NCBI GenBank assembly: GCA_964371875.1
Contig: CAYJOS010000001.1
Coordinates: 1-63,270 of the forward strand
DNA: 63,270 nt
From: an uncultured Oscillospiraceae bacterium
GTDB lineage: Bacteria; Bacillota; Clostridia; Oscillospirales; Oscillospiraceae
Reading direction: 5' to 3'
In this document: positions 24,417 to 63,270 of the stretch, one piece after another
Numbering within the stretch: position 1 is the first letter of the stretch
Layout of the letters: each line of letters opens with the position of its first letter
Made by a program: the position numbers and the translations under genes
Notes under the pieces: generated by a model
Seen by the model: only the letters and a program-made list of their open reading frames with translations
What the model was told of the DNA's origin: nothing
Databases searched by the model: none

Positions 24417-24491
24417 TTTTTTGCTCCATTCTGCCGCCTTGCTTCGGCAAATTTTTTTTACAAGGAGATTTAATTTAAATCTATCTAAGAT

Positions 24492-44488: not shown

Positions 44489-45799
44489 TTAGCCGTTTAA
44501 AACTGTGTCCATCATTTCGTACATTTTAGTTTGGTTGCAATTTTCGCCCATATCTTGCTTTAAAAATTCCTTGACGGTGTCAATCTTTTTAATAGCGTGA
44601 TTTAGCTTTTTATTACTGCCGTCTTTATAAGCACCGATAGATATTAAATCTTCGTTTTGCTCATAAATACTCAAAATATCTCTCATTTGTGAGGCAGATT
44701 GTTTCTGTTTTGCGTCGACAATATTCGGCATAAGCCTTGAAATGCTTGAGCTGATATCTATTGCTGGGAAATGGTTTGAGTTGGCAAGTTTTCGACTTAA
44801 AACTATGTGTCCGTCCAAAATACCTCGGACGGTGTCGGCAACAGGCTCATTTGTGTCGTCACCCTCAACCAAGACAGTGTAAATTCCAGTGATAGAACCT
44901 TGGTTGAACATACCGCTTCTCTCCAAAAGTTTTGGAAATTCGGCATAAATCGACGGTGTATATCCACGGGCGACGGGTGGTTCGCCAGTTGCAAGCCCAA
45001 TTTCACGTTGAGCCATGGCAAATCTTGTAAGTGAATCCATCATCAGCATAACATTTTTGCCTTGATCTCTGAAATATTCCGCAATTGTTGTTGCAACTAG
45101 TGGGCATTTCATGCGGAGCATTGCAGGCTGGTCGGAGGTTGCGACAACTAAAACCGAGCGTTTCATGCCCTCGGGCCCAAGGTCGTGTTCGACAAATTCC
45201 CTGACCTCACGTCCACGTTCTCCAACCAGTGCGATTACGTTTATATCGGCTTCAACATTTCGGGCAATCATGCCCAAAAGTGTACTTTTTCCAACACCTG
45301 AACCTGCAAAAATTCCTATACGCTGACCCTTGCCTATGGTGTTTAGGGAGTCGATTGCGCGTATTCCAAAATGCATTCTCTCCCTAATGGGAGGTCTGTC
45401 CAAAGGGTTGATTTTGGGGTTTTCTACATAATAAAATTTTTCTGAGGGGAAAGCCCCTTTTCCGTCAATTGGATTTCCCATGGCGTCGATAATTCTGCCT
45501 TTAAGAAACTGCCCGACAGGGATTTTTAAACGTTTTTTTGTGTTTCTAACAAAACTATCAGGTCCAATTCCTGGAATATCTTCATAAGCCATAAGTTGGA
45601 TTTTATCGCCTTGAAATCCAACAACTTCGGCTGGGATTTGTTTTTTTTGGTCTTCATTATAAATGAGAACAATGTCGCCTATGTTTGCACCTTTGCCTGA
45701 AGCAGTCATAGAGATGCCCGTGACATTTTCAATTTTGCCGATATAACTGATGGTGTCGGCATTTTTTATCATCGTAGGTAAATCTCTTAGCATTGGCAA
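44489..45799 (-). CDS. fliI: Flagellum-specific ATPase FliI
   Basis: Walker A is GSGVGKST, Walker B is LMMDSLTR, and the overall layout resembles the F1 beta subunit. Confidence 0.95.
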   Translation of the reverse strand: MPMLRDLPTMIKNADTISYIGKIENVTGISMTASGKGANIGDIVLIYNEDQKKQIPAEVVGFQGDKIQLMAYEDIPGIGPDSFVRNTKKRLKIPVGQFLKGRIIDAMGNPIDGKGAFPSEKFYYVENPKINPLDRPPIRERMHFGIRAIDSLNTIGKGQRIGIFAGSGVGKSTLLGMIARNVEADINVIALVGERGREVREFVEHDLGPEGMKRSVLVVATSDQPAMLRMKCPLVATTIAEYFRDQGKNVMLMMDSLTRFAMAQREIGLATGEPPVARGYTPSIYAEFPKLLERSGMFNQGSITGIYTVLVEGDDTNEPVADTVRGILDGHIVLSRKLANSNHFPAIDISSSISRLMPNIVDAKQKQSASQMRDILSIYEQNEDLISIGAYKDGSNKKLNHAIKKIDTVKEFLKQDMGENCNQTKMYEMMDTVLNG

Positions 45800-45807
45800 G
45801 CCCTCAC

Positions 45808-46632
45808 TTAAAGTCGTGCATTATTTAAAATTTCCTTGATATTTTCAAGCTGTGTTTTAACACTGATATCCATAATTGCATCGGGTGTTTCAACTATGCA
45901 AGTTCCTGGTTCGCTCTCGTCGATAACCACAATTTTTACACTTTCGGCTATATGCGAAATGCTCTCTAAAAATTCTGTATCGCCAGAAATGTCAATGCCT
46001 TCGCCACTATTACCTATATAAATTTTAGCCCAACTTACTTTTTTCATTTTTTCGGTTGCGACCAAAATCATTCGCTCAATAACTTCTTTGCTGGACTTCA
46101 AACTTGTTTGAACTATTTTTTCTCCGATTGCGATTGAAATATTTTTTAATGCATCTAAATATTGCTCTAAAAGCTTTTCTTTCTCCTCAGAAATTTCATA
46201 AATTTCATTTTCAAGTCTTTCCATAAAATTGTTGAGCTCTAAAGTGATTTTTTTGTCTGCATCTTCGGTTGCCCGTCGAAGACCTTCGGCATAGCCATCT
46301 TCTTCGCCTTTTGCAAATGACTCATTATATTTTTTTTCAGCCTCAACTTTGCATTTTTCCTCGGCTTGGAGAATGATTTGCGTTGCAGCTTCACGGGCGT
46401 CGGCAACTATTTGCTCTGCATCGGCAATTGCTTTTTGCAGTGTGTTTGTCGCCAAAAGATCCTCTTCAAAAACATCTTCTTCGGGGATGAATTCTTCTTC
46501 TACTTCTTCGATTTTAATTTCATCTATAATTTCTTCGATTATAGCAAAATTGCTGTCGAGATTTATGGTTTTGGGCACATAAAGACTGATTTCTCTATTG
46601 AAAGGGTTATCGGGCTTTAATATGTTAGACAA
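45808..46632 (-). CDS. fliH: Flagellar export stator FliH
   Basis: It has a charged coiled-coil middle and a FliH-type C-terminal domain. Its position is between fliG and fliI. Confidence 0.8.
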   Translation of the reverse strand: MSNILKPDNPFNREISLYVPKTINLDSNFAIIEEIIDEIKIEEVEEEFIPEEDVFEEDLLATNTLQKAIADAEQIVADAREAATQIILQAEEKCKVEAEKKYNESFAKGEEDGYAEGLRRATEDADKKITLELNNFMERLENEIYEISEEKEKLLEQYLDALKNISIAIGEKIVQTSLKSSKEVIERMILVATEKMKKVSWAKIYIGNSGEGIDISGDTEFLESISHIAESVKIVVIDESEPGTCIVETPDAIMDISVKTQLENIKEILNNARL

Positions 46633-47710
46633 TTATATCATCTCCTCCGCCGCCTTTACCGACGACAATTTCACCTTCTTCTTCAAGCTTTCTAATGATG
46701 TTAACGATACGTTGTTGCGCTTCTTCAACATCGCGAAGTCTTACATTAAATGTAATTTCAAGGTCGGATTTAATTGTTTCAGCCATTCTGGAAGACATGT
46801 TTGCAAAGAAAACATCCATGATTTCTTGACTTGAACTCTTAAGCGCATAGACAATGTCTTTCATGTTGCAATCTCTGATAAAACGTTGAATTGAGTGGCT
46901 GTCCATAAGTAGAATATCTTCGAAAACGAACATTTTTTTGCGGATTTCTTCTGCAAGTAATGGGTTGACTTTGCTCATCTCGTCGAAGATAAACTTCTCG
47001 TTTGACCTGTCCATGTGGTTCATGACGTCTGCGATATAGTCTATGCCGCCGATTTCTGTAAAGTCTGTTGTGAGAACGCTGTCGAATTTTTTGAGTAGAC
47101 TGCTTTCAATTGCACGGATAACTTCTGGTGAAGCACTTTCCATTTGGGCAATACTTTGAACAACCTTGATACGTGTTTTGTCGGGAAGTTCAGAGATAAG
47201 TGCCGCCGCTTGTCCCGGTTCTGCATAAGACAAAATCAAGGCGATTGCCTGAGGGCGCTCACGTTGCAAAACAGAATACAAGCTTTTTGTATCCATTTTT
47301 TGTATGAATTCAAATGAACGATTTTTAAGATATCTGTTCATTTTCTTCAGAAGTTCGGCAGCTGCCGCTTCGCCATAGGTTCTCTCTAAAACTGCACGGG
47401 CATATTCAATGCCGCCTTCTGTGACAACCTTTTGCGTTAGGCAAGCTTTGTAAAAATCATCCATTACAACGCTTGTGTCGTCTGAGGACATGTGCCCTAG
47501 TTTAGCAAGCTCTAATGTTAATTTTTCTACGTCTTCTTCGCTTAAATATTTATAAACTTTTGATGCACTATCAGCACCTAAAGCGGCGACGATAACAGCC
47601 GCTTTTTTTTGAAATGTAAGTTCAGGAGCAACGGCAGCGACTTCTGGCGTTTCGGCTACTTCTTGCTCTGTTTCTGTATCAGCTTTTTTAGAACTACGTG
47701 CCACTTTCAT
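46625..47710 (-). CDS. fliG: Flagellar rotor protein FliG
   Basis: The C-terminal torque-helix region is MSSRMAETIKSDLE...RLRDVEEAQQRIV, and an MFVFEDI motif is present. The N-terminal extension is about 30 aa. Confidence 0.95.
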   Translation of the reverse strand: MKVARSSKKADTETEQEVAETPEVAAVAPELTFQKKAAVIVAALGADSASKVYKYLSEEDVEKLTLELAKLGHMSSDDTSVVMDDFYKACLTQKVVTEGGIEYARAVLERTYGEAAAAELLKKMNRYLKNRSFEFIQKMDTKSLYSVLQRERPQAIALILSYAEPGQAAALISELPDKTRIKVVQSIAQMESASPEVIRAIESSLLKKFDSVLTTDFTEIGGIDYIADVMNHMDRSNEKFIFDEMSKVNPLLAEEIRKKMFVFEDILLMDSHSIQRFIRDCNMKDIVYALKSSSQEIMDVFFANMSSRMAETIKSDLEITFNVRLRDVEEAQQRIVNIIRKLEEEGEIVVGKGGGGDDIIV

Positions 47711-49295
47711 CGCCTCCGTTCAACCATTGTCTAATCATTTGTGCAGAAATTTCGGGATTTTCGTCGGCAAAAGCACGAACCATGTCACGAATTTCTGTTG
47801 ATTTATCGGGCGGAATATCGCCAAAGCTTGCAAATTCAACTCCATCACCGTTGACAAATCCAGCAATTTCACCTGCTGCGGCTGCTTCTGCTGCGGCGGC
47901 AAGACGTTTTTTCTTGGATCTTTTTGCAAGGATTATTGCTAGTACTATTACTAAAATCAACACAGCCAGACCGATAATTGCTACAAGTGGATTTTCTTGT
48001 ATGTATTCAATCGGAGAAATGTCAATTCCAAGCCCTGAAGAATCACTGCCTGAGCCGTAGAACGGTGCGGCGATAATTGAAATTTTATCCGCTCTGACAT
48101 CTGCTGCTATACCTGTTGCGTTACCGATTAAATCTCTCAAAAGTGATTCGTCGATTATTGTCGCTTCAAAACTGTTGATTGAAACTGCAACAGAAACGTC
48201 TTCAATTGTTGCGCCTTCTTCTTGTTGAGTTTGTTCAATTTCTTGGTTTACGAGATAATCTCTGTCGGCGGCGGTGCTTAAAACGTCGCCACCTGCTGTG
48301 TCTTCGTTGCCATTATATTGAGTTGCCTCTGCGTTTGTTTCAGTTCCGACGACTTCGTTTGCTCCGTCGCCACCTTGAAGAATTTCTGAAGAGGTTGTTT
48401 CGTGTGAAACGATGCCTTCTTTGTCGAATTCGTCTATTTTATCGGGAGTTGTGTATGTTGTGGTTTCTTTAACAGAAGAAGCAGAATTTAGCTTGCCCCA
48501 AACAGAAACTCTAACATTGTCTTCGCCATAAAATGGAATTAAAACATTAATCGCTTTACGTGTTAGCTCGTTTTCCATTTGCCTTAGAGTTTCCTCGGCA
48601 GAAACACCTTCGCCTGTTAACTCGGCTGTGGAAACTTCAAGTCCGTTGCCGTCGATGACAACAACATCTTCCATCAGCATTCCAGCAACACTAGTGGAAA
48701 CAAGGCGTTGTGCAGCTTGCGCTTGCTCTGCTGAGGGCGCTCCACCATCGTTCATTATAATGGTAACGGAAGCACTTGAACCCTCTTTTTCGCTTGCAGG
48801 CGACAAAATATATTGGTCTTCTTCAACTAGGGCGATTGTGACTTTTGCGTCTTTAACTCCGCCCCAAAGTCTGATAGTTGAGCCAATTCTGTCCTGCAAA
48901 TCGTATAGCTCTAGTTGTTGATTTTCAGCATCGGTTGACATGCCACCGGCATTGTCTAGATATGTACCATATGCAAATCCGCTTTTGGGATAGCCCTCAA
49001 AAACTAAAGTTGCACGGGTATTGTCGACAACCTTGCTGTCGACAAGAATATCCCCGTTTTGCAGATATTGATATTCAATTCCCTGTTCTTGGAGTCTTCC
49101 AGTGATTTGTGTTGCCTCGTCAGGTGCAACACCAGCAAACAAAACTTCATAGCTTGTGCGGTTTAGCATGACCGCACCAACAATTGCAAGAACAAGCACC
49201 AAAACAGCACCGCCTATAATAAGACCGAGTGTTTTTTTGCTAAATTTTTGAAGAAATTGTTTGAATTGAGATAACCAAAGTTTAATTTTGTCCAT
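47694..49295 (-). CDS. fliF: Flagellar MS-ring protein FliF
   Basis: At 533 aa it has two TM helices flanking ring-building motifs, and a C-terminal FliG-binding tail. Confidence 0.95.
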   Translation of the reverse strand: MDKIKLWLSQFKQFLQKFSKKTLGLIIGGAVLVLVLAIVGAVMLNRTSYEVLFAGVAPDEATQITGRLQEQGIEYQYLQNGDILVDSKVVDNTRATLVFEGYPKSGFAYGTYLDNAGGMSTDAENQQLELYDLQDRIGSTIRLWGGVKDAKVTIALVEEDQYILSPASEKEGSSASVTIIMNDGGAPSAEQAQAAQRLVSTSVAGMLMEDVVVIDGNGLEVSTAELTGEGVSAEETLRQMENELTRKAINVLIPFYGEDNVRVSVWGKLNSASSVKETTTYTTPDKIDEFDKEGIVSHETTSSEILQGGDGANEVVGTETNAEATQYNGNEDTAGGDVLSTAADRDYLVNQEIEQTQQEEGATIEDVSVAVSINSFEATIIDESLLRDLIGNATGIAADVRADKISIIAAPFYGSGSDSSGLGIDISPIEYIQENPLVAIIGLAVLILVIVLAIILAKRSKKKRLAAAAEAAAAGEIAGFVNGDGVEFASFGDIPPDKSTEIRDMVRAFADENPEISAQMIRQWLNGGDESGT

Positions 49296-49323
49296 AAAAA
49301 ATGCCTAACCTTCTCAGTTTAAA

Positions 49324-49626
49324 TCAAAGACCAATTCTTATCAGTTCATTATAAGCTTCTAGAGCTTTATTTCTTAACTGAACTAACATATCAACAGATA
49401 ATTGAGCTTCGGAAGCGGCGATAGTCACGGTGTGTGCGTCGTCTAGCTGTCCTGTTGCGAGCAAATATTGTTTGTGTTCTAAGTTTTTTTGAGTTTCGGT
49501 TACGTCATCAATAGCGTTTTGAAAAATATTAGCAAAAATTCCGCTGTCATCATTTGTAATATTGGTTTCTTTCATTTGAGAAAAAGTCTGTAGTCTGTCA
49601 ATTGGAGCGATAAAACCATTATTCAT
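49324..49626 (-). CDS. fliE: Flagellar hook-basal body protein FliE
   Basis: It is 100 aa, and the C-terminal VQLRNKALEAYNELIRI is typical. Confidence 0.85.
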   Translation of the reverse strand: MNNGFIAPIDRLQTFSQMKETNITNDDSGIFANIFQNAIDDVTETQKNLEHKQYLLATGQLDDAHTVTIAASEAQLSVDMLVQLRNKALEAYNELIRIGL

Positions 49627-49660
49627 AATCGTCCATACCTTTCGATTTTTTTATTTATAA

Positions 49661-50041
49661 CTAACCTTTGATAGCTGTGCTCAATCTGTTTATGTCGCTA
49701 CTGATTGAATCTAGAGCATATCTGTACTGAAAAGAAGTTCTGGTGAGCTCAATCATTTCGACTTCAACGTTGACATTGTTTCCGTCAAGGCGAAGTCCTT
49801 CGTTTTGGGAAGTGTGAACTTTTGCAAAAGATTTGTCTATTGCATCTTTAAAGCTATCACCGCCCATGTTTAAAGCGGCGTCTAGTTCTTTTCTGAACTC
49901 TTCTTCAAAAGTTACGTATTGGGCTTTATAGCCAACAGTGTCATTATTTGCAATATTGTTTGAAGTCACACCTTGGCGTAACCAGAGGTAATCGAGTGAC
50001 TTGTTAAGCATATTTATAGAATTTCCATATATAGTATTCAT
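49661..50041 (-). CDS. flgB: Flagellar proximal rod protein FlgB, the first gene of the operon
   Basis: The motifs LRQGVTSNNIANNDTVGYK and a C-terminal rod heptad are present. Confidence 0.9.
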   Translation of the reverse strand: MNTIYGNSINMLNKSLDYLWLRQGVTSNNIANNDTVGYKAQYVTFEEEFRKELDAALNMGGDSFKDAIDKSFAKVHTSQNEGLRLDGNNVNVEVEMIELTRTSFQYRYALDSISSDINRLSTAIKG

Positions 50042-50087
50042 ATTTTACCCTCGTTTACATAATATTACTTAAAACATAATTTACTTT

Positions 50088-50116
50088 ATTATACATCCAA
50101 TTAGAATTTTTTTCAA
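50088..50116 (-). promoter_or_regulatory. Consensus sigma-A promoter of the fla/che operon
   Basis: On the minus strand: TTGAAA (50111-50116), a 17-nt spacer and TATAAT (50088-50093). It lies about 45 nt upstream of the flgB ATG. Confidence 0.7.
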
Positions 50117-50214
50117 CATTTTTTTGCAAATTTCGACAATAAGTGCATAATTACTCAAAAAAAATAATTTATAATCATAAAAATAATATTTTTGAACAAT
50201 TTTTAAACAAAGCA

Positions 50215-50243
50215 TTGAAAATTTTTTCAATTTACTGTATAAT
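50215..50243 (+). promoter_or_regulatory. Sigma-A promoter of the PilZ gene, divergent from the fla promoter
   Basis: TTGAAA (50215-50220), a 17-nt spacer and TATAAT (50238-50243). Confidence 0.65.
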
Positions 50244-50284
50244 ATTTGTGCGAACTTATTTATGTAAGCAATGGAGTGAAAAAC

Positions 50285-50965
50285 ATGAGTTTAAAATTGT
50301 GTAGCAAAGCTGCGATATACGACAACGATGGTGATACCATTCTTTGTCAGGCAAGCGTTAGGGATGTAGATGGAAATACTGCAACCCTTGTTTTTGATGA
50401 AAATGATATAGAAATACTCGAATCAGAAATGATAATTACATTTTATGATGATGTTTTGGGTTTGATTACATACAATTGTCAACTTGCGGCAGGAAAAAAG
50501 TTTATAGACAAAGACAGAAAATATAAACAAGCACTTAAATGCGTACTTGGAGAGCAATTGTCCGTTCTTCAAAGAAGGTCTGACATTAAAGTTCATGTCG
50601 ACATTCCTGTCAGATTGCTAATTCCGCCAACTGTTGAACTGCCGCCCGAATTTTCCGAAGGTGAAAAACATAGGGGGGCAACGATTGTTGTGGGCACAGC
50701 CTTTGACCTAAGCGCCGGAGGACTGTTTCTACACACCTTGTGCGACATCCCTGAGGAGAGCAGCTTTAGTATTTTGTTGCCTGTTTCGTCCGACAAGGCG
50801 ATTGAGCTTGACGTGACTATGCTTAGAAAAGTGCCACCTGAAGAAAATGCTGAAAATAAAAATTTTGGCTATGGCTGCAAATTTGTCAATATGAGTTCAA
50901 GCACAGAAACAACCATACGTAGCTTTGTCTTTAGACAGCAAATGTTAAATCGTAAAATGAGATAA
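50285..50965 (+). CDS. PilZ-domain protein (YcgR/MotI-like candidate c-di-GMP receptor)
   Basis: The ATG is at 50285. The PilZ motifs are QRRSDIK (the second Arg of RxxxR is replaced by Lys) and DLSAGG (DxSxxG). The length is 227 aa. Confidence 0.75.
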   Translation: MSLKLCSKAAIYDNDGDTILCQASVRDVDGNTATLVFDENDIEILESEMIITFYDDVLGLITYNCQLAAGKKFIDKDRKYKQALKCVLGEQLSVLQRRSDIKVHVDIPVRLLIPPTVELPPEFSEGEKHRGATIVVGTAFDLSAGGLFLHTLCDIPEESSFSILLPVSSDKAIELDVTMLRKVPPEENAENKNFGYGCKFVNMSSSTETTIRSFVFRQQMLNRKMR

Positions 50966-50974
50966 AATGAGATT

Positions 50975-51014
50975 AAAAAAGTCAAAAATCCAAACTGGAT
51001 TTTTGACTTTTTTT
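50975..51014. terminator. Bidirectional terminator between the PilZ gene and the ylqH-like gene
   Basis: gtcaaaaatcca (50981-50992) pairs with tggatttttgac (50996-51007). A-runs and T-runs flank the hairpin. Confidence 0.8.
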
Positions 51015-51022
51015 ATTCAAAT

Positions 51023-51364
51023 CTATTCAGCCTCAACTACCTCAGCTGTTCCGGTTTCTTCAAGAATTTCGGCTTTGGTTTCGTCAATCAATCCTGAGGG
51101 TTTGTAGTTTAGGAAGTAGATATAAATATCGACTATCGCACGGTAAAGTTCTTCAGGAATTTCAGAGCCGAGTTTTAACTGAGTGAGCATGGTTGCAAGT
51201 GAGTTGTCTTCATAGACAGGAATGGAATTTTCCCTTGCGACTTCGACAATTTTCTCCGCAAGATATCCCATGCCAGAGGCAACTATAATCGGTGCGGCTT
51301 TGCCTGCTTCGTCATAGGAAAGCGCAACCGCCTTTTGGTTTAAAATTTCATTAAATTGAGACAT
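51023..51364 (-). CDS. Soluble paralog of the FlhB C-terminal domain (YlqH-like)
   Basis: KAVALSYDEAGKAAPIIVASGMGYLAEKIVEVARENSIPVYEDNSLATML...IPEELYRAIVDI aligns with the post-NPTH part of FlhB at 32377..33438. It has no TM region. Confidence 0.8.
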   Translation of the reverse strand: MSQFNEILNQKAVALSYDEAGKAAPIIVASGMGYLAEKIVEVARENSIPVYEDNSLATMLTQLKLGSEIPEELYRAIVDIYIYFLNYKPSGLIDETKAEILEETGTAEVVEAE

Positions 51365-52784
51365 TTACAGAGTTTTTCCTTTCAAAAATTTGTGGAAATG
51401 CAGTGGAAATTGGAATTGAACGCTTGTCGGTTTCTATAAAAAGTTCATCGGTTTTGATGTTATTTAAAGCCAAAATTCTGGAAATTTCATCTCGAATTAT
51501 GCCTATATCTTTTTCCAATTCCTCGGGGCAATTTAGCTGTAATTTTATGCTTTCGTTTGTGTATAAAAAGTATAAATCAAAAAATCCAACCTCTTGAATG
51601 TCGAATTTTATAAGACCTTGCAAAGTCTTTTCTTTGCCGTTTTTGTCCTTATTTCCCTCGGCGTCGGGGTCTATCCACATCTCGGAAAACATCAGTCTTT
51701 CGCCAACTTGTAGTGGTAACATCAAGTGCAAAACAGGCATATAAACGCTTTCGTTTAGTAGTATAGACTGCATTAAATTTCTGAAAACCATTTTGTTTTC
51801 AAGCCCTGCTTCGCCTGAAGCTCCGTTACGGATTAGCTCTATCATGCTGTCTGCCCACTCTTGTTGGTTTGCGGTTTTTTTATAGTCAGTTCCTTCCAAA
51901 ACTTGAAGCAAAACTGAGGTGTCGAAGTTTTTAAATTCCTGTTGCATGGCTTGATATTTCATGAGATTTTCAAAGGCCATAACAACACGGTCAGCAGAGC
52001 CGTTTTCACATCTTGCCATCAAAGTTGCAAGTGCAGCCGTGAGGTCACGAAGGTTTCCTCTGTTGTTGTTTCGGGTTATGTAATTATTCAGGAAGGGCAA
52101 AATTTCACCTTTGAAAACAGTGATATTTTCAGCCATACCCTCTCCCCTGCTACCTATATTATAATTGAGTTTTGTCAGCAGAGTATGGAAACCCTCCTTT
52201 GAAGATTGGAGCAAGTTTTTGTCAATTTGGTTTAACAAATCCGAAGCTGTGTTCATAAGGTGCGAACTCTCGCTCATATCGGTGTATCTTCGCAGAAAAT
52301 CCAAAATTCCCGTTTTGAGTTCAACTGAAGTTGTGTTTTCAAGTACTTGATTTAGTAAGGTGAAAAATGAACCTGTGAATTTTAAAGATGCGTTGGCTTG
52401 GTTTTGGACATAGTTTAAAACGTCAGCTTCGCCCATGCCTATCATTTCAAAAAATTGGGCAATTTGCTCTGCAAAATTATTTCCAACACCTGATTCAACT
52501 ATAGAGCCGAATTTTTGGAAAAATAATTTTGAAAATTCTTCGGTCATATTCGGGAGCATTTTTGTCTGCTGTACAAAATTTTCAAAGTTTGAGTCATATC
52601 GGAATTTTAGCCCAACCCCATTATCTTGCGGTGCTGAATCGCTTCGAGCGTCAGGTTTTGAAACCTTATCGGGCGTTATCGGCGCTTGAATTGCGGGGTC
52701 TGTGGTCTTCACGGGCCCTGTTTTCACATGATTTGCATTATCAAAACCACTTATAGGGGTGGTAACTTTTAATATATTAGACAT
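51351..52784 (-). CDS. Hypothetical 477-aa protein translationally coupled to the FlhB-C paralog (YlqG-like position)
   Basis: The ORF is long and uninterrupted and overlaps the downstream gene by 14 nt. The N-terminus is disordered. I recognised no catalytic motif. Confidence 0.6.
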   Translation of the reverse strand: MSNILKVTTPISGFDNANHVKTGPVKTTDPAIQAPITPDKVSKPDARSDSAPQDNGVGLKFRYDSNFENFVQQTKMLPNMTEEFSKLFFQKFGSIVESGVGNNFAEQIAQFFEMIGMGEADVLNYVQNQANASLKFTGSFFTLLNQVLENTTSVELKTGILDFLRRYTDMSESSHLMNTASDLLNQIDKNLLQSSKEGFHTLLTKLNYNIGSRGEGMAENITVFKGEILPFLNNYITRNNNRGNLRDLTAALATLMARCENGSADRVVMAFENLMKYQAMQQEFKNFDTSVLLQVLEGTDYKKTANQQEWADSMIELIRNGASGEAGLENKMVFRNLMQSILLNESVYMPVLHLMLPLQVGERLMFSEMWIDPDAEGNKDKNGKEKTLQGLIKFDIQEVGFFDLYFLYTNESIKLQLNCPEELEKDIGIIRDEISRILALNNIKTDELFIETDKRSIPISTAFPQIFERKNSVNVSI

Positions 52785-52961
52785 TTTTTCACCTACTACA
52801 AAAATTATTGTTTCATTTTATAAAAGTTTATGGTATAGTTAAGTAGACATATTTTAAAAGTGTAAATTCGACATTTTTAAAATCATCATATATACTTTAA
52901 CATATCACGAGATATGTTGCAATCTATTTTGTATTCTAATCATAAGGTGGTGCCAATTTAA

Positions 52962-55106
52962 ATGAGCAATATAAATGATAGCTTATTTGAAGCGTATTTG
53001 TTCGAAACAAATTCTCTACTCGAAAAACTGGACGAACTTCTTCTTGAAGCGGAGAGTTCTGGGGACTTGAGTGAAGATGCCGTCAACGAAATCTTCCGAA
53101 GCATGCATACAATCAAAGGTTCTTCTGCTATGATGGAGTTTAAACCTCTTATGGAAATTGCTCATCATGTTGAAGATCTGTTCTTTGCAATTCGTGAAAA
53201 TGGCATGGGAGATTTTAGTCAAGAGAAAAAAGGTGAACTTTTTAACTTGCTATTCAAATGCAATGATAGGCTGAAAGAAGACGTTTTAAAAGTTGAAAAT
53301 GGAGAAGAGCTAAGTGACAACATTGCCGATTTTATTGAAGAAATCGACTCTTTCTTAAAGTCGACAAAAGACGAACCTGCAAAACCCGCTCCTGCACCTG
53401 TTGAAAACAAAGCTCCCGAAAGCGGAAATGCTGAAGTAACACGAGTTGTTGAAGTTGACCCTGAAGCACTCGTTGGTTTTACTTCTGAAATTGACGCACC
53501 AGAGCATCCATATTATCTTCATATCTTTTTTGATGATGACTGCGGAATGGAAAACCTTAGGGCTTTTATAATCGTTACTGCATTAAAAGAAGCCGAAATG
53601 GAGTTTTTATTTTCACCACCTGACATTGAAACAAATTCGGAAACTTCCGAAAAAATTGTCAATGATGGATTTTATGTTTTCTTCAAAACAGATGATGAAA
53701 TCGAAAAAGCAATACAAGCTATTGCTTCAATGGCAAACATCAAATCTTATGAAGTTTTGATGAATCCAAAGTATATCGACCCTGAAGCGGAAAAAGAAGC
53801 GGCGGCAGCTGCAGCGGCTGAAAAAGAAGCCGAGGCAGAAGTTGAAGTTGAAGAAAAACCAATTCAAAAAGCCGAGCCTAAAGCCGAAGTTTCAAAACAA
53901 ATCAAAGCTTTAAGTAATACAAAACAAAGCCTTATCAGCGTTAGCCTTTCAAAACTTGATAAACTTATGGCGCTAGTCGGAGAAATTGTTATCACCGAAT
54001 CTATGGTGGCATCATCTCCCGAGCTAAAAGGCGTAAAGCTTGATAATTTCCTTAAATCTACAAGACAGCTCAGAAAATTAACCGATGACTTGCAAGATAT
54101 TGCCATGTCACTTCGAATGGTTTCTGTTTCTGCTGTTTTCCAAAAAATGAACCGTATTGTTAGAGATATGACAAAATCTCTAAACAAAGACGTTGCACTT
54201 ACGATTATTGGTGAGGACACTGAGGTTGACAAAACTATTGTCGACTGCATTGCCGACCCCATTATGCATATAGTACGAAATGCCATGGATCACGGCATTG
54301 AAAAAACTGCCCAAGAAAGAATTGACAAAGGTAAAAACCCTCAAGGCGCTATTGTTCTGTCTGCTGAACACACAGGCAGTGAAGTTATCATCAAAATTTC
54401 AAACGATGGTAGTGAAATGGATGCAGAGAGAATTTTGGCTAAGGCAAACAAAAAAGGTCTTCTTTCAAAACCACCTGAAGAATATACTCGCAAGGAAGCT
54501 TTGTCGCTTCTCATGCTTCCAGGTTTTTCAACGAACTCACAAGTCACTGAATATTCAGGCAGAGGCGTGGGACTTGACGTTGTTAAGAAAAATGTTGAGT
54601 CAATCGGCGGAACAGTCACAATCACAAACGACCCTGGTGATGTCTGCTGCTTCACTTTGAAAATTCCGCTAACACTTGCAATTGTTGACGGTATGGAAAT
54701 TTCTGTCGGCGGAGAAGCTTTCACAATTCCGATTGCAAATATCAGGCAGTCATTCAAAGCTGATGACTCCGATATTTTATTCGACGCTTCAGGAAATGAA
54801 ATCATCTCATGGCAAGGCGAATTTTTCCCTGTTGTCAGACTGTATGATGCACTTCAAATCCCAGCGGAGTCAACAAAAATTGCTGATGGTATCTTGATTT
54901 TGGTTGAAGCAAATGAAAAACCATACTGCCTATTTGTTGACAAACTTCACGGCGAGCAACAGGTTGTTGTTAAGCCACTCCCCTCATATTTAAATGCTTA
55001 CAATATCAAAAATTCCGGTATTAGTGGTTGCACAATTTTGGGTAACGGTAATATCAGCATCATCCTTGATATTGGCAATCTATATACTTCAACTCAAAGA
55101 CCATAA
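52962..55106 (+). CDS. cheA: Chemotaxis histidine kinase CheA
   Basis: The HPt site is FRSMHTIKGSSAMM. The HATPase motifs are HIVRNAMDHGIE and GRGVGLDVV. The C-terminal domain is CheW-like. Confidence 0.95.
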   Translation: MSNINDSLFEAYLFETNSLLEKLDELLLEAESSGDLSEDAVNEIFRSMHTIKGSSAMMEFKPLMEIAHHVEDLFFAIRENGMGDFSQEKKGELFNLLFKCNDRLKEDVLKVENGEELSDNIADFIEEIDSFLKSTKDEPAKPAPAPVENKAPESGNAEVTRVVEVDPEALVGFTSEIDAPEHPYYLHIFFDDDCGMENLRAFIIVTALKEAEMEFLFSPPDIETNSETSEKIVNDGFYVFFKTDDEIEKAIQAIASMANIKSYEVLMNPKYIDPEAEKEAAAAAAAEKEAEAEVEVEEKPIQKAEPKAEVSKQIKALSNTKQSLISVSLSKLDKLMALVGEIVITESMVASSPELKGVKLDNFLKSTRQLRKLTDDLQDIAMSLRMVSVSAVFQKMNRIVRDMTKSLNKDVALTIIGEDTEVDKTIVDCIADPIMHIVRNAMDHGIEKTAQERIDKGKNPQGAIVLSAEHTGSEVIIKISNDGSEMDAERILAKANKKGLLSKPPEEYTRKEALSLLMLPGFSTNSQVTEYSGRGVGLDVVKKNVESIGGTVTITNDPGDVCCFTLKIPLTLAIVDGMEISVGGEAFTIPIANIRQSFKADDSDILFDASGNEIISWQGEFFPVVRLYDALQIPAESTKIADGILILVEANEKPYCLFVDKLHGEQQVVVKPLPSYLNAYNIKNSGISGCTILGNGNISIILDIGNLYTSTQRP

Positions 55107-55120
55107 TAGGAGGTGCAGTT

Positions 55121-55621
55121 ATGACAGATTTTGATTTTGACAACAATGAAATTGAATTTGACAGCGATAATGAAGCTCTAATTCAAGACTATGTCCCCAA
55201 GGACATTAAAAGCTACCTAACCTTTAAATCAGACGATGTGGTTATGGGTGTTCGTGCAGAAACTGTAATTGAAATAATTGCAAACTACATGATACGTCCT
55301 GTTCCGAAATTGCCTGAATTTATCAAAGGTGTTATAAATTTACGTGGACAAGTGCTTCCTGTAATTGACATGCGTTTACGCATGAACAAATCAGAAACCG
55401 TGTCTACCTCCGAAACTTGCGTCGTAATTTTGGACATAGACGGAACAGAAGTTGGGCTTATAGTCGACTCGGTTTTGCAAGTTCAAAGTGTCGATATGAA
55501 CAAAGTTTCCCCTGTTCCTGTGAAAAATGGTGATGCACTAGCAGACACTATGATTAGACTGTCTGAAGACTGCGTTGCACTTCTTCTCAATTGCCCTGCA
55601 ATCATTGCAAACGTATATTAA
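55121..55621 (+). CDS. cheW: Chemotaxis coupling protein CheW
   Basis: It is a 166-aa CheW-like domain (VINLRGQVLPVIDMR). Confidence 0.9.
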   Translation: MTDFDFDNNEIEFDSDNEALIQDYVPKDIKSYLTFKSDDVVMGVRAETVIEIIANYMIRPVPKLPEFIKGVINLRGQVLPVIDMRLRMNKSETVSTSETCVVILDIDGTEVGLIVDSVLQVQSVDMNKVSPVPVKNGDALADTMIRLSEDCVALLLNCPAIIANVY

Positions 55622-55634
55622 TGGAGGTGGCTAA

Positions 55635-56447
55635 GTGCTAACCCTTACGCAAGAAGATTATCTCAGGCTTGTTAAGTTTATGCGTACAAATTACGGCATA
55701 AATTTGGAGCGAAAAAAGGAACTTATCCAGAGTAGATTGTCAGATATAATCGCTTCAATGGGATATACTTCCTTTAAAGACTATGTAAAGCATATAGAAA
55801 CAAGCAAAGACCAAAACGAAATTGAGATTATCGTCAATGCCCTTACCACAAATTACACATATTTTATGCGTGAAAACACCCATTTTGACCATTTTAGGGA
55901 CGTAATTCTCCCAGATTTGGAAAAAAAGAAAAAGGACAAAGTTTTAAGTATATGGAGCGCAGGTTGCTCTTCGGGTGAAGAACCATACACGCTTTCCATG
56001 CTTATAATGGATCATTTTGGCGAAAAAGCCAAGCAGTGGGACACGAGAATTTTAGCTACTGACATTTCCGAAAAAGCTTTGCAAAAGGCTTTAATTGGAA
56101 AATATAAGGAAGAGTCAATCTCAAAAGTTCCTGAAAGCTGGAAAACGAAATATTTCGGCAAACCCGACAAATTGGGCGACTGCCAAGTTTCCGACCAAAT
56201 TCGTGCAAATGTCATCTACAAAACTTTTAATTTAATGGATAGAATACAATTTAAATTAAAATTTGATGTTATTTTCTGCCGAAATGTCATGATTTATTTC
56301 GACAGAGATACTCAAAAAGCACTAACCAAAAGGTTTTACGATGCGACAAACAGTGGCGGATATCTGTTCATTGGGCACTCTGAAAACCTTGTGGATAATG
56401 AAATGGGATATAATTATATCATGCCGGCGGCATACAGAAAAAATTAA
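55635..56447 (+). CDS. cheR: Chemotaxis methyltransferase CheR
   Basis: The GTG start follows GGAGGTGG. The SAM motif is IWSAGCSSGEEPY, and FCRNVMIYF is present. Confidence 0.9.
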   Translation: MLTLTQEDYLRLVKFMRTNYGINLERKKELIQSRLSDIIASMGYTSFKDYVKHIETSKDQNEIEIIVNALTTNYTYFMRENTHFDHFRDVILPDLEKKKKDKVLSIWSAGCSSGEEPYTLSMLIMDHFGEKAKQWDTRILATDISEKALQKALIGKYKEESISKVPESWKTKYFGKPDKLGDCQVSDQIRANVIYKTFNLMDRIQFKLKFDVIFCRNVMIYFDRDTQKALTKRFYDATNSGGYLFIGHSENLVDNEMGYNYIMPAAYRKN

Positions 56448-56469
56448 TAAAAAAATTTTAAATTTTTAC

Positions 56470-56496
56470 TTAAGTAATTAATTTAACCGCCGATAT
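56470..56496 (+). promoter_or_regulatory. Sigma-28 (SigD/FliA) promoter of the flagellin gene
   Basis: The -10 is an exact GCCGATAT at 56489-56496. The -35-like element is TTAA/TAAG at 56470-56474, with a 14-15-nt spacer. Confidence 0.8.
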
Positions 56497-56557
56497 ATCT
56501 AAGTGAACATGAAACAGTGTTGCGCGCCACGGTTTCTTGTAATACAATTTAAAAAAG

Positions 56558-56590
56558 AGAGCAAGGATGCTCTTTAAAATTCAAGGAGGA
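56558..56590 (+). promoter_or_regulatory. Flagellin 5'-UTR hairpin with a GGA loop plus a GGA-containing SD, which look like CsrA-type binding sites
   Basis: The stem agagc/gctct (56558-56573) presents AAGGAU in its loop. The SD is AAGGAGGA at 56583-56590. The layout mirrors the B. subtilis hag leader. Confidence 0.55.
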
Positions 56591-56597
56591 AAATTCA

Positions 56598-58088
56598 ATG
56601 CGTATTCAACATAATATTACAGCTCTAAACTCATACCGTAACCTAGGTATCAACAACAGTGCAGTTTCTAAAAACCTAGAAAAACTTTCTTCAGGTTATA
56701 GAATCAACCGCGCTGGTGACGATGCTGCTGGTCTTGCTATCTCTGAAAAAATGAGATCACAAATCACAGGTCTTGAAACAGCTCAAAAGAATGCTCAAGA
56801 CGGTATTTCACTTGTTCAAACTGCTGAAGGTGCTCTAACTGAAGTTCACTCAATGCTAAACCGTATGGTTGAGCTTGCAACACAATCTTCAAACGGTATC
56901 TATACAGATTCTGACCGTGCAAAACTAAACGACGAAATCAACCAACTAAACGACGAAATCGACAGAATTTCTGAAGCTACAAACTTCAACGGCATCAACC
57001 TACTTGATGGTTCTCTAGCTTCTAAAGCTGGTGTAAGCGGAGTTACAACTGATATAGCTGGTACAACCACTCCGTTAGCAGCAACTGGTGGTGCTAAATT
57101 CTCACAAGTCCTAACATTTGCTCAGGGCACTGACGAAGAAACTCAAACAGTTGAACTTGCTTACTTAGATAAAGATGGTGTGGCACAAAATGCTACAATT
57201 TCTTTTACAGCAGGTTCAACAGCTGCTGAAACAGGCACTAGTGCTCTTGAAGCACTTAAAGGTGTATTTGGTGAAGGATATACACTTACTGCTTCTGCTG
57301 CTGCTATCACTATAACAGCAAACGAAATTGTTGGTGAAGAAACATCAGTTCTAAAAATGACACAATATGATGGTACTTCTACAACAGCTGAAACAACAAC
57401 TGTCGCTGCAGCAACAGCTGGTAAAGATAATCTATATACAGCAACACTCAATACCGCAGATTTGGCAGATGAAATTTTCTTAGAAGTTGACGGACAAAAA
57501 TTCCAAGTTCTTTCTGAAGGTAAAACTGCTGAAGCTGGATACACAGGGATTTTTGTTGACCAACAAACAGGCGCACTAACAGGAGACTCAATCAAAGAAG
57601 TTGCAACTCAACTACAAGAACTTGGTATTGATGTTAAAGCAACTGCTACAGCACTAGAATTTACAGAAAAAACTGATTCATCTGTTAAAGGTGGTCTAAC
57701 ACTACAAATCGGTGATACATCAGACCAATTCAACAAACTAATTGTTGGTGTTCAAGATATGAGTGCTGATGCTCTAGGTCTAGGCTCACTTGATATCTCA
57801 ACATATGAAGGCGCTTCTGCTGCTATCGATGCTATCAACGCTGCTATCGAAAAAGTTTCAACAACTCGTTCAGCAATGGGTGCTATCCAAAACCGCCTTG
57901 ACCACACAATCAACAACCTAGGTGTTACAACTGAAAACATGACTGCTGCTGAAAGCCGTATTCGTGACGTTGACATGGCTAAGGAAATGATGGAATATAC
58001 AAAGAACAATATCCTTGTTCAATCTTCACAAGCTATGCTTGCGCAAGCTAACCAAATTCCACAAGGCGTTCTACAACTTCTACAATAA
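56598..58088 (+). CDS. fliC: Flagellin
   Basis: The conserved N-terminus is [16 protein letters not shown]...[23 protein letters not shown] and the C-terminus is [18 protein letters not shown]. The central region is variable and Thr/Ala-rich. Confidence 0.95.
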
Positions 58089-59803: not shown

Positions 59804-60070
59804 TAAAAAAATCCCGTCCTATCCTAAGGACGAGATTGAAAATTCTCGTGGTACCACCTTGGGTTTGCACATGCCTCACGACATATGCCTCGCAGAGTTC
59901 AAAAAAACTCTCGGTGCTGTAACGTGCACTCACGTCGTAGCCTACTTGATATCGTTCGGTACGCTGCTAAGAGATGTATTCACAAAGAAAAACCATGCGC
60001 CTCTCATCAAACGGCAACTTTCTGAATGGATAAAAACTTTGTTACTTCTTCCCTATTATCGCTTTTTAAT
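59804..60070 (-). promoter_or_regulatory. T-box riboswitch leader with a UAC (Tyr) specifier
   Basis: All on the minus strand. Stem I starts GCGAUAAUAGGGAAGAAGUA. The specifier loop is GAA-UAC-A, with the codon at 59976-59978. An F-box-like CACGUUACAG is present. The T-box is AAACCCAAGGUGGUACCACGAG (59845-59868). The terminator is CUCGUCC/GGACGGG plus U7 (59804-59834). Confidence 0.85.
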
Positions 60071-60887: not shown

Positions 60888-62054
60888 ATGCGTTTTGCGA
60901 AGAGAATGGAAAGATTTACCGAAGGTGTTTTTTCAACACTTTTGGATGTAAAAAATAAAAGAATTGCCGAGGGAAAATCTGTGGTCGACCTCAGTGTCGG
61001 CACTCCGAACATCCCCCCTGCCCCTCATATTAAGGAAGCAATTGTCAATTCTATTAATGATAGTTCAAAATTTATTTATGCGATTTCTGACACGAGTAGA
61101 CTGAAAAATGCGGTTGCAGATTGGTATAAAACCAGATATGATGTCATCTTAAACCCTGAAACCGAGGTGGTTTCTTTGCTTGGTTCACAGGAGGGACTCG
61201 CTCACATTTCGCTGACTTTGGCTGACGAGGGAGACATAATTATGGTGCCTGACCCTTGCTATCCTGTGTTCAGCGACGGCCCTAAAATCGCTGGTGCTGA
61301 ACTTTACCACATGTTGCAAAGACCCGAAAATGATTTCATCATAGATTTAAGAGAAATACCCACAGATATTGCAAAAAAAGCAAAAATGATGATAATTTCA
61401 TATCCAAATAATCCCACAACAGCTGTTGCTCCTGATAGTTTTTATCTCGATTTAATCAAGTTTGCAAAGGAATTTGACATCGCTGTTTTGCACGATAACG
61501 CATACAGTGAGCTGACTTTTGATGGAAAAACAACTGGCAGTTTTCTTAGATTTGAGGGTGCTCGTGAGGTCGGAGTTGAGTTCAATTCACTGTCAAAAAC
61601 TTACGGTTTAGCAGGTGCAAGAATTGGATTTTGCGTTGGTAATTCTGACATGGTATCACACCTTAAAAAGCTCAAATCAACCATGGATTACGGCTTGTTT
61701 TTGCCACTTCAAGAGGGTGCAATTGCTGCTATTTCAGGCGACCAAGCATGTGTGAAAACCACCTGTGATGCATATGAAAAACGTAGAGATGTACTTTGCG
61801 ATTCGTTTTCAAAAATAGGCTGGAAAGTTGAGAAATGCCCTGCAACTATGTTTATTTGGGCTAAAATACCTGGAAAATATTCAAGTTCTGCCGATTTTGC
61901 GATGCGACTTGTCAACGAAGCCGGTGTGATCGTAACCCCTGGAATTGCCTTTGGAGAGAGTGGTGAGGGTTATGTTAGAATTGCCCTTGTACAAAACGAA
62001 GAGGAAATTTTGAAGGCAGCCGAAGCGATTGATAAAAGTGGTATTTTGAAATAA
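60888..62054 (+). CDS. Class I/II PLP-dependent aminotransferase
   Basis: The ATG at 60888 follows GAGAGGAAG. The PLP-lysine motif is NSLSKTYGLAGARIGF, and NNPT and LHDNAY motifs are present. Confidence 0.85.
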   Translation: MRFAKRMERFTEGVFSTLLDVKNKRIAEGKSVVDLSVGTPNIPPAPHIKEAIVNSINDSSKFIYAISDTSRLKNAVADWYKTRYDVILNPETEVVSLLGSQEGLAHISLTLADEGDIIMVPDPCYPVFSDGPKIAGAELYHMLQRPENDFIIDLREIPTDIAKKAKMMIISYPNNPTTAVAPDSFYLDLIKFAKEFDIAVLHDNAYSELTFDGKTTGSFLRFEGAREVGVEFNSLSKTYGLAGARIGFCVGNSDMVSHLKKLKSTMDYGLFLPLQEGAIAAISGDQACVKTTCDAYEKRRDVLCDSFSKIGWKVEKCPATMFIWAKIPGKYSSSADFAMRLVNEAGVIVTPGIAFGESGEGYVRIALVQNEEEILKAAEAIDKSGILK

Positions 62055-62073
62055 AAATTTGGCAATTTTTAAA

Positions 62074-62770
62074 GATTTTTGCTTCGGCAAAAAGAACGAG
62101 GGAACGGAGAATTTTCGTTGCGACGAAAAGAACGAGAGAACGAAGAGAACGGTCTCCGACGGCTCACTTTTTCTCGTGAAAAAGTAAGCAAAACACGTCG
62201 GGGAAACACCCCCGAACGGTGGGAACGATTAAGGGTGCAGAATATACAGACTATAATAAAAATGAAAAATTTTGAGTAGTTGCAATCGCACTAAAAGAGA
62301 GCAAAACTAACAAGGGCTAATCGCCCTTCGGGTGTCCCGTTGGCTACTCATCTGAAAAACTTTATAGTAGGAGGGTCTATTTAGTCCTGTAAAATGCGAA
62401 CTTTGCAAAACGCTTCGTATCTAGCAGTTTTAAATAGACCCTCCTACTCGTGGATTTTGCTGGTGAGTAGTCAACGGGCGTTTTTTAGGCGTCAGCCGTG
62501 GTTTCGCTTTCTTTTGGTGCGATTGCAACTGGTGATTATCTTGCCGATTTTGTTAGTCTGTATATTCAGCACCCTATCGCATCCCACCGTTCGGGGGTGT
62601 TTCCCCGATGAGTTTTTTCCATACTTTTTTTCTCACTAAAAAAAGTATGCCCTCGGAGAGCGTTCTTTTTCGGCGCAACGAAAATTCTCCCCGTTCTTTT
62701 CGCCGAAGCGAAAACCCTTCTCGTTCTTTTCGTCGCAACAAAAATGCTCCCCCTCGGAGAGCATTTCGTA
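62074..62770. repeat. ORF-free nested inverted-repeat (foldback) element built from A/U-stem mini-hairpins
   Basis: The left arm (62074-62297) is about 80% identical to the reverse complement of the right arm (62511-62716). A perfect 27-mer at 62198-62224 pairs with 62582-62608. An inner hairpin spans 62336-62478 and is followed by T6. An extra repeat unit occupies 62717-62770. Confidence 0.8.
62740..62765 (-). terminator. Probable terminator of glnS, embedded in the outermost repeat unit
   Basis: On the minus strand, AUGCUCUCCGAGGGGGAGCAU forms a hairpin followed by UUUUU (plus-strand aaaaa at 62740-62744). It lies 18 nt after the glnS stop. Confidence 0.6.
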
Positions 62771-62782
62771 TTGTAAAATTCC

Positions 62783-63270
62783 TTATTTCTTAAACCCATC
62801 TTTAAGTTGCACCGAACGGTTAAACACAAGTTTTCCCTCTTTCGAATCCACGCTATCAACGCAGAAATATCCAAGTCTTAGGAATTGGAACGAAGCTGGT
62901 GCGACCACATTTTCAAGACTTTTTTCAACTTTGCAGTTTGAAAGAACTTCAAGCGACTCAGGATTTAGGCAGTCAATAAAGTTCTCAGCCATGTCAGGTT
63001 CAGCATCGGAAAATAGGCTAGAATATTGACGAACTTCGGCATCGAGGCAATTATTTGCATCAACCCAGTGAATAGTACCACGCACTTTTCTGCCGTCGGG
63101 AGTAGTTCCGCCACGTGTTTCGGGGTCATATTCGCACAAAATTTCGACAACATTTCCCTCATCGTCTTTAACGCAACCTGTGCATTTTACGATGTAAGCA
63201 CTCTTTAGGCGAACTTCGTTTCCTGGGAAAAGTCTGTTGTATTTTTTGACAGGTTCTTCCATAAAATCGT
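62783..63270 (-). CDS. glnS: Glutamine--tRNA ligase, C-terminal anticodon-binding part (the gene runs off the window)
   Basis: The sequence RLFPGNEVRLKSAYIVKCTG...PDGRKVRGTIHWV...FQFLRLGYFCVD is typical of the GlnS C-terminus. The frame stays open to the window edge. Confidence 0.85.
   Translation of the reverse strand, partial: DFMEEPVKKYNRLFPGNEVRLKSAYIVKCTGCVKDDEGNVVEILCEYDPETRGGTTPDGRKVRGTIHWVDANNCLDAEVRQYSSLFSDAEPDMAENFIDCLNPESLEVLSNCKVEKSLENVVAPASFQFLRLGYFCVDSVDSKEGKLVFNRSVQLKDGFKK

Follow-up and report, generated by a model that had tools for sequence, protein, structure and literature searches.

A conserved, gene-free palindrome of terminator-like hairpins between two convergent genes of an uncultured Oscillospiraceae bacterium

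The Correia (NEMIS) elements of Neisseria are non-coding intergenic inverted repeats of 100-155 bp that occur in hundreds of copies, show a TA duplication at their flanks, are often co-transcribed, form long hairpins and possess both promoter and terminator activity. In Proteobacteria, the REP/BIME/REPIN and ERIC/IRU families are short, imperfect palindromes clustered in extragenic DNA, typically found after genes or between convergent genes, that can stabilise the upstream mRNA; REPINs are inverted unit pairs forming a larger hairpin, and REP families combine a high copy number with a RAYT transposase. In Clostridia and gut bacteria, invertible promoter switches (e.g., the RecV-dependent ones of C. 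difficile) consist of 20-30-nt inverted repeats around a 150-300-bp promoter segment, placed upstream of the regulated gene. Here, we set beside these systems an element that fills the gap between two convergent genes in a 63,270-nt stretch of DNA (positions 1 to 63,270 of contig CAYJOS010000001.1, assembly GCA_964371875.1; referred to below as the window) from an uncultured Oscillospiraceae bacterium.

The gap, which measures 728 bp from stop codon to stop codon (62055-62782), is bounded by a class I/II aminotransferase gene (60888-62054, plus strand) and by glnS (minus strand, stop codon 62783-62785), and contains no credible gene. The palindrome is real, lacks genes and consists of hairpins that resemble terminators. 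Judging from sequence and its conservation, we tentatively read the element as a single-copy, lineage-restricted and non-coding cassette of transcription signals that is maintained by purifying selection and most likely acts via transcription and RNA, although we would give this reading somewhat less than an even chance. An initial annotation of the locus, made from the letters alone, had remarked that the gap is far larger than two terminators need, is free of open reading frames (ORFs) and forms a nested foldback. These observations stood up to our analysis, while several of the interpretations attached to them did not.

Palindrome and conservation

An alignment of the region to its own reverse complement covers 62076-62714 (680 columns, E=7e-81) and resolves into 13 nested inverted-repeat pairs (I1-I13) around a symmetry centre near 62407, with the terminal inverted repeats I3, I5, I6 and I7 being 24-32 nt long at 84-96%. 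The whole palindrome consists of two inverted copies of an approximately 340-bp module, in which one finds, from the outside to the inside, a mini-hairpin array, a hairpin containing CTCCGA, a hairpin of A and T runs, an invariant 27-mer, two conserved blocks and one half of a central hairpin. The arms, initially put at roughly 80% similarity (62074-62297 against 62511-62716), agree at 74% of all columns and at 87% of ungapped columns, which makes that estimate a reasonable one. Checked base by base, the perfect 27-mer (62198-62224 and 62582-62608), as well as blocks of 20/21 and 19/20 matches, proved to be as described.

The sole homologue that we found lies in contig CAYJLH010000079.1 (hereafter L001) of another uncultured Oscillospiraceae metagenome-assembled genome (MAG), GCA_964370925.1, positions 1-419 of which align to 62347-62745 of the window. 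This contig carries the same right-arm modules as the window, including three mini-hairpins spaced 40-43 nt apart. As a yardstick for divergence, we used a T-box leader and an ordinary spacer nearby, compared between the same two genomes with the same aligner. Four-fold degenerate sites of the aminotransferase gene are 32% identical and thus saturated, the ordinary spacer between the thiamin pyrophosphokinase (TPK) and aminotransferase genes is 48% identical, and shuffled sequence gives 51%. The T-box leader, a known functional RNA, is 74.5% identical, as compared to 74.4% for the element overall, 85% for its centre and 69% for its right arm. As the element matches the T-box leader while the spacer lies at the shuffle baseline, its level of conservation resembles that of a functional RNA and greatly exceeds that of neutral DNA.

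This conservation is distributed in blocks. A run of 27 columns is invariant across the three arm copies (permutation p<5e-5), whereas stretches such as 62527-62566 fall to 55%. The most conserved part is the central hairpin (62336-62478, pair I1, with 65-nt arms that are 74% complementary and 13 nt between them), the left half of which is 92% identical to the homologue, as compared to 78% for the right half. This asymmetry suggests that the left half has a sequence-specific role, instead of the stem being what selection maintains. The three arm copies are approximately equidistant (68-73%), and at 33 sites the two arms of the window agree with each other but differ from L001. For the centre, the right halves of the two genomes share 82% identity, whereas either of them shares 68% with the left half. 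The left/right differences of the central hairpin are, moreover, common to both genomes, indicating that the palindrome was in place before the two elements diverged and that it has a polarity.

Hairpins, transcription signals and reading frames

The outermost modules are arrays of 18-nt mini-hairpins. The left array (62076-62129, plus strand; repeat D2) comprises two of these (62076-62093 and 62112-62129) in a 36-nt unit, with a purine-rich GAACG linker after each, while the right array (62667-62744, minus strand; repeat D1), which mirrors it, comprises three (62667-62684, 62697-62714 and 62727-62744) in a 30-nt unit. The pattern TTTTYGN6CRAAAA matches five times in the 63-kb window, as compared to 0.37 matches expected, and all five fall inside the element at exactly the places where the initial annotation had seen mini-hairpins. 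The compensatory differences noted there were likewise borne out, as two of seven base pairs show C-G/U-A exchanges over eight copies, with 94% of the cells paired, and the GAACG recurrence was recovered at 62094, 62102, 62130, 62138 and 62147. Further inside, the left (62162-62189, I13; GCTCACTTTTTC..GAAAAAGTAAGC) and right (62620-62649, I11; a perfect 12-bp stem) A/T-run hairpins both show double changes that keep the stem among the three arm copies, so that their outer pairs differ among the arms yet remain complementary.

Five terminator-like hairpins, each a G+C-rich stem-loop followed by a T run as in intrinsic terminators, were found in the region of the window where 1.3 are expected. 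The CTCCGA hairpin with its T run forms an inward terminator, well formed in the right arm (62649-62661, minus strand; GCTCTCCGAGGGC then ATACTTTTTT; site kept in L001 at 312-300) and degenerate in its left-arm counterpart (62150-62165). The invariant 27-mer (pair I2) provides a GGGG/CCCC hairpin plus T run that reads, by its orientation, as an outward intrinsic terminator in both arms, namely at 62190-62224 on the minus strand (TCGGGGGTGTTTCCCCGA then CGTGTTTTGC) and at 62582-62617 on the plus strand (hairpin 62591-62608 then TGAGTTTTTT). The right copy is identical in L001 at 246-263, where it is followed by CAAGTTTTTG. An extra hairpin at 62312-62328 (AAGGGCGATTAGCCCTT then GTTAGTTTTG), terminator-like on the minus strand, is confined to the left arm. 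The first plus-strand terminator detected on the aminotransferase side is the central hairpin with the T6 run that follows it (62481-62486), a putative plus-strand terminator in this genome only. On the other side, glnS has a terminator of its own (62746-62764, minus strand; GCTCTCCGAGGGGGAGC then ATTTTTG) just outside the right arm. Beside these signals stand the two conserved blocks, one at 62232-62253 (GGGTGCWGAATATACAG; mirrored at 62554-62575, I8) and the other at 62278-62307 (AGTTGCAATCGCAC...; mirrored at 62501-62530, 30 nt at 90%, I4), and a sigma-70-like promoter match, TTTACA-N18-TACTAT (62364-62393, minus strand), that points into the left arm and is exact in L001 at 47-18. At the mirror position in the right half, both genomes have TACTCG. 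An independent scan of L001 picked up the minus-strand promoter match again, along with the inward and the outward terminator.

On the basis of these signals, the cassette could work as follows. An old inverted duplication of the 340-bp module would have created the element. Its inward terminators and hairpin arrays would end and cap the two convergent mRNAs, the promoter-like site in the centre would give rise to a minus-strand transcript of about 165 nt, from about 62357 to 62190, ending at the left outward terminator, and the outward terminators would stop transcription that is born in the centre or that crosses the element from running antisense into the neighbouring genes.

The initial annotation had favoured a plus-strand RNA, namely a structured small RNA of about 220 nt (approximately 62264-62487), with the central hairpin and T6 as its terminator and a core in which GGAGGG is sequestered. 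Some of this description is sound. The two inner stems pair at 15/17 and 18/18 positions, GGAGGG is indeed in the inner stem (at 62370-62375, rather than 62372-62377), TATAAT does occur at 62252-62257 in the left copy only, T6 is present, the centre is the best-conserved part, and in both genomes the plus strand gives the more stable fold of the central hairpin (-76.3 as compared to -63.3 kcal/mol here, and -55.2 as compared to -51.6 kcal/mol in the homologue). Eight of the ten transition differences in the central hairpin are G-U on the plus strand, five of these wobbles being shared with the homologue, although this lean of 8 to 2 is not significant. However, the homologue reads TTTGAGC in place of T6, TATAAT is missing from the other two arm copies, what had been taken for a 47-nt apical loop is largely paired, and no Rfam family matches. 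Seven differences between the genomes break central pairs (six single changes and one double), while only two single changes preserve pairing, and selection on a stem would not give halves as unequal as 92% and 78%. We thus consider this particular plus-strand small RNA unlikely.

The strand bias that the annotation had invoked also disappears when the whole palindrome is counted. The three G-U examples are real but were selected, since 29 of the arm-to-arm transition differences read as G-U on the plus strand, as compared to 24 that do so on the minus strand. Folded as RNA, the whole region reaches -367 kcal/mol, as compared to -195 +/- 6 for shuffles (z=-27), the z-scores over 62055-62782 being -27 and -31. 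The two strands fold about equally, both as RNA (-367 and -363 kcal/mol) and, nearly so, as DNA (-225 and -213). Arms acting as independent structured RNAs were ruled out, as they fold no better than shuffles.

One should also ask whether the symmetry serves the DNA itself. The 30-nt inverted repeats 62278-62307/62501-62530, 90% complementary, flank a 193-bp segment (62308-62500) with face-to-face promoter-like sites, as in an invertible promoter (an invertible segment was also among the candidates of the initial annotation), and repeated dyad-symmetric units at both ends, together with the same blocks kept in both arms in mirror orientation, would also suit an origin, partition or recombination site made of mirrored protein-binding repeats. 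Such a cis-acting site has, nonetheless, little probability in our view. The neighbouring genes point inward, so that there is nothing obvious to regulate, and the outward terminators would block a switched promoter. The hairpin stems co-vary, which protein half-sites would not, and the repeat spacings differ (30, 36 and 40-43 nt), which speaks against a protein binding in phase. The neighbouring genes examined include no recombinase, Rep or Par gene, and similarity to plasmids or phages was not detected. Sequence inspection also disposed of named sites. The block at 62232-62253 resembles dif only in AGAATATA, with the "XerD arm" not being conserved among the arms, and LexA, Spo0A, DnaA and cre boxes were similarly ruled out. 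The 30-36-nt units are contiguous and their non-hairpin part is itself repeated, unlike the units of a CRISPR array.

The element is non-coding, with no ORF conserved in frame as would be expected of a gene for a small protein or type I toxin. In each of the three arm copies, the longest inward ORF runs through the 27-mer in a different frame (RGNTPERWE, GETPPNGG and GKHPRTVG), and the loop ORF spans 81 aa in the window and 35 aa in L001, with substitutions by codon position of 7:5:10. Pfam gave no match in the intergenic gap, and when joined six-frame pieces of 62185-62625 were compared to 5.8 billion proteins, no predicted protein matched. A toxin-like peptide starting at ATG 62394 was rejected, as this ORF is truncated and its frame changed in the homologue.

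Genomic setting and distribution

In the related MAG, the contig that carries the aminotransferase ortholog (L006; 84% amino-acid identity) preserves the order AMP-binding enzyme, TPK and aminotransferase, but has a convergent MCP gene 61 bp past the aminotransferase gene, with no element in between (L006 4029-4091). Synteny and similarity between the window and the MAG stop exactly at the aminotransferase stop codon (62054-62056), and the palindrome thus sits at a rearrangement breakpoint. As the downstream gene differs between the genomes, the MAG site is a synteny break, rather than a clean empty site. The homologous element in L001 is found elsewhere, next to an ATPase_2/DUF234 gene (stop codon 5 nt away) and not next to glnS. 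The 20-mer of the other arm matches nowhere in assembly GCA_964370925.1, which probably broke at the palindrome. Neighbourhoods of more distant homologues, namely three for the aminotransferase (identity of 73% or less) and two for glnS, showed neither synteny nor the element.

The breakpoint raises the question of whether the palindrome is a passive by-product, i.e., an inverted duplication of a terminator-rich 3' flank made when a rearrangement joined the convergent genes. Its position, its composition of mostly terminator-like hairpins (5, with 1.3 expected) and a 12-nt core that the glnS terminator shares with an internal hairpin are all in line with this origin. The homologue, however, largely refutes it, as the same palindrome with the same asymmetries is present at another locus although neutral sites are saturated between the genomes, the spacer lies at the shuffle baseline while the element is at 74-85%, and the 27-mer is invariant in three arms. 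We regard a passive origin as very unlikely.

A low-copy, non-autonomous foldback mobile element or its relic, with the mirrored arms serving as ends for a transposase or recombinase encoded elsewhere and the terminators and promoter as cargo thanks to which an insertion between convergent genes does no harm, is the main competing explanation, and one that we consider possible, if on balance doubtful. The initial annotation had offered a similar idea, a foldback resembling a miniature inverted-repeat transposable element, and the occurrence of the homologue at a second locus, adjoining a different gene, fits it. So do the inverted repeat that runs from end to end, the subterminal motifs (two on the left and three on the right), the absence of an ORF and the aminotransferase locus of the related MAG that lacks the element, with synteny stopping at the stop codon. 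Only 12 of the 106 variable arm columns differ in all three copies, which is far from saturation, and a split of the elements later than that of the genomes would explain this simply. Nonetheless, no second copy was found within the 63-kb window, the related MAG yielded a single 20-mer match, and none of the other approximately 185,000 species representatives had any. The best candidate for a target-site duplication is a 6-mer, AAAATT, which, among 1161 boundary choices in AT-rich DNA, is within chance. From 44 kb to the window end, no transposase, recombinase, Rep or Par gene was present among the neighbouring genes examined, and the MAG site, as noted, is not a clean empty one. Conservation equal to that of the T-box leader can, moreover, be accounted for by vertical descent under selection, with no need for recent transfer.

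The searches on which this distribution is based should be described by their reach. Whole-genome scans used exact 19-20-mer patterns, and the 20-mer scan of the species representatives (GTDB) gave one true match, that in the related MAG. Matches in Streptomyces were judged to be chance G+C-rich matches. These fall in Streptomyces sp. NZ_OZ186832.1, where L002 4140-4390 and L003 3010-3260 each contain three tandem 99-bp non-coding repeats with a 26/27 match to the invariant 27-mer (GGGGAAACACCCCCGAACGG core). A metagenome scan with AGTAGGAGGGTCTRTTTAR returned two stray single matches without wider similarity to the element, viral contigs scanned with exact or degenerate patterns gave none, and blastn of the 728 bp against plasmid and phage collections was also negative. 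Of the 4227 Rfam families, only the T-box (59823-60068) passes its gathering threshold in the window. In a permissive search of 61900-62900, the best score was 35.7 bits for MIR8562, a plant miRNA with a threshold of 211, which merely reflects a long hairpin. A literature search returned nothing relevant on comparable bacterial elements. The recurrence of a 13-mer at 24439-24451, to which the initial annotation had drawn attention, is a chance match (E=1.6) without wider similarity; the sequence around it (24436-24460) is an ordinary terminator-like hairpin (TTGC-TTCG-GCAA) followed by a T8 run.

Several observations on the surrounding sequence are worth recording in their own right. The glnS terminator (62740-62765) and the right-arm internal hairpin (62639-62664) have the 12-nt core CCCTCGGAGAGC in common, an A run precedes both cores, and together these form D3, a direct repeat with 77% identity over 26 nt. 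Sequence may have passed between the element and the glnS terminator of its host. In three independent ENA metagenome scaffolds (L011 3475-5156, L012 and L013), two overlapping ORFs (340 aa and 233 aa, with a 43-nt overlap) are called for glnS, pointing to a frameshift in that lineage or to a gene-calling problem that recurs in it. The T-box leader used above is full length (59823-60068, minus strand, 113.7 bits) and is located between the TPK gene and the gene for the AMP-binding enzyme (58146 to about 59880), rather than ahead of an aminoacyl-tRNA synthetase gene, an arrangement that is kept in L006 together with the leader (74.5% identical). Farther upstream lies a flagellar and chemotaxis cluster (44489-58088) that includes a FliI-type ATPase, FliG, FliF, a PilZ protein, CheA, CheW, CheR and flagellin.

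The reading of the element as a selected transcription-signal cassette has some drawbacks that need to be considered. Every comparative statement made here rests on two genomes and three arm copies and, as the central hairpin is cut off within its left stem at the end of L001 (1-10), the comparison covers the right arm and the centre only. The location of the homologue at a different locus suits a mobile element at least equally well. The local hairpins co-vary, but in the central hairpin no compensatory double change that keeps pairing was found between the genomes, and single arms, when folded as RNAs, show no extra stability over shuffles (z=-2.0, -0.8 and +0.2). As for direction, about four local wobble pairs favour an outward reading and one an inward reading, so that this evidence is thin and mixed. 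The promoter match is only 9/12, with an 18-nt spacer, and its conservation is not independent evidence, since the block around it is conserved in any case. Transcription of any part of the element, the ends of the transcripts and a benefit to the host are points that we infer from these motifs. With two genomes compared, the practical importance of the element is modest at present, but the conservation yardstick makes this orphan palindrome, which is real, rare and conserved to an unusual degree, more than a curiosity.

Comparison with known systems

If the element is a selected device acting at the RNA level, it would show how convergent genes are insulated in uncultured gut-type Firmicutes and might bring to light a small RNA particular to the lineage; if, instead, the element is a mobile foldback, it would represent an unusually large, low-copy and terminator-carrying type for Clostridia. 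In either case, as the adjacent T-box leader and the neutral spacer provide an internal yardstick of divergence, the element is a clean test case for selection versus mobility in orphan palindromes. It might even be the first example of an undescribed class, a self-contained, palindromic non-coding cassette of Oscillospiraceae with both arms under selection, be it an antisense or divergent RNA module that pairs with the 3' untranslated regions of both neighbours or an element with hairpin ends that is mobilised by an enzyme specific for single strands. Either would have a modular, "terminator-insulated" layout unlike that of REP, Correia or ERIC sequences. We think such a class rather improbable.

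Among described systems, ordinary intrinsic terminators share with the element their G+C-rich hairpins and T runs, here present on both strands between convergent genes. A pair of terminators, however, needs less than 100 bp and is normally neither conserved across genomes with saturated synonymous sites nor carried to another locus. Large RNAs of the Rfam collection (GOLLD, ROOL, OLE, HEARO and the T-box) are similar in size range, in intergenic position and, as regards the T-box, in the level of conservation. What stabilises the element, however, is complementarity between its arms, to the same extent on either strand, and not a strand-specific fold. The layout of repeats around a promoter is that of the clostridial invertible switches, but the element lies between two 3' ends and its symmetry extends along all 700 bp. 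In comparison to REP-type sequences, a repeated unit exists and co-varies, but all five matches in the window are in one locus and the element is 5-7 times larger. Correia elements differ in that the present element is about 700 bp long, apparently single-copy, without a detectable duplication at its flanks and found in Oscillospiraceae. Although it lacks the high copy number of these families, by analogy the element appears most like the co-transcribed intergenic palindromes of the Correia, ERIC and REPIN type.

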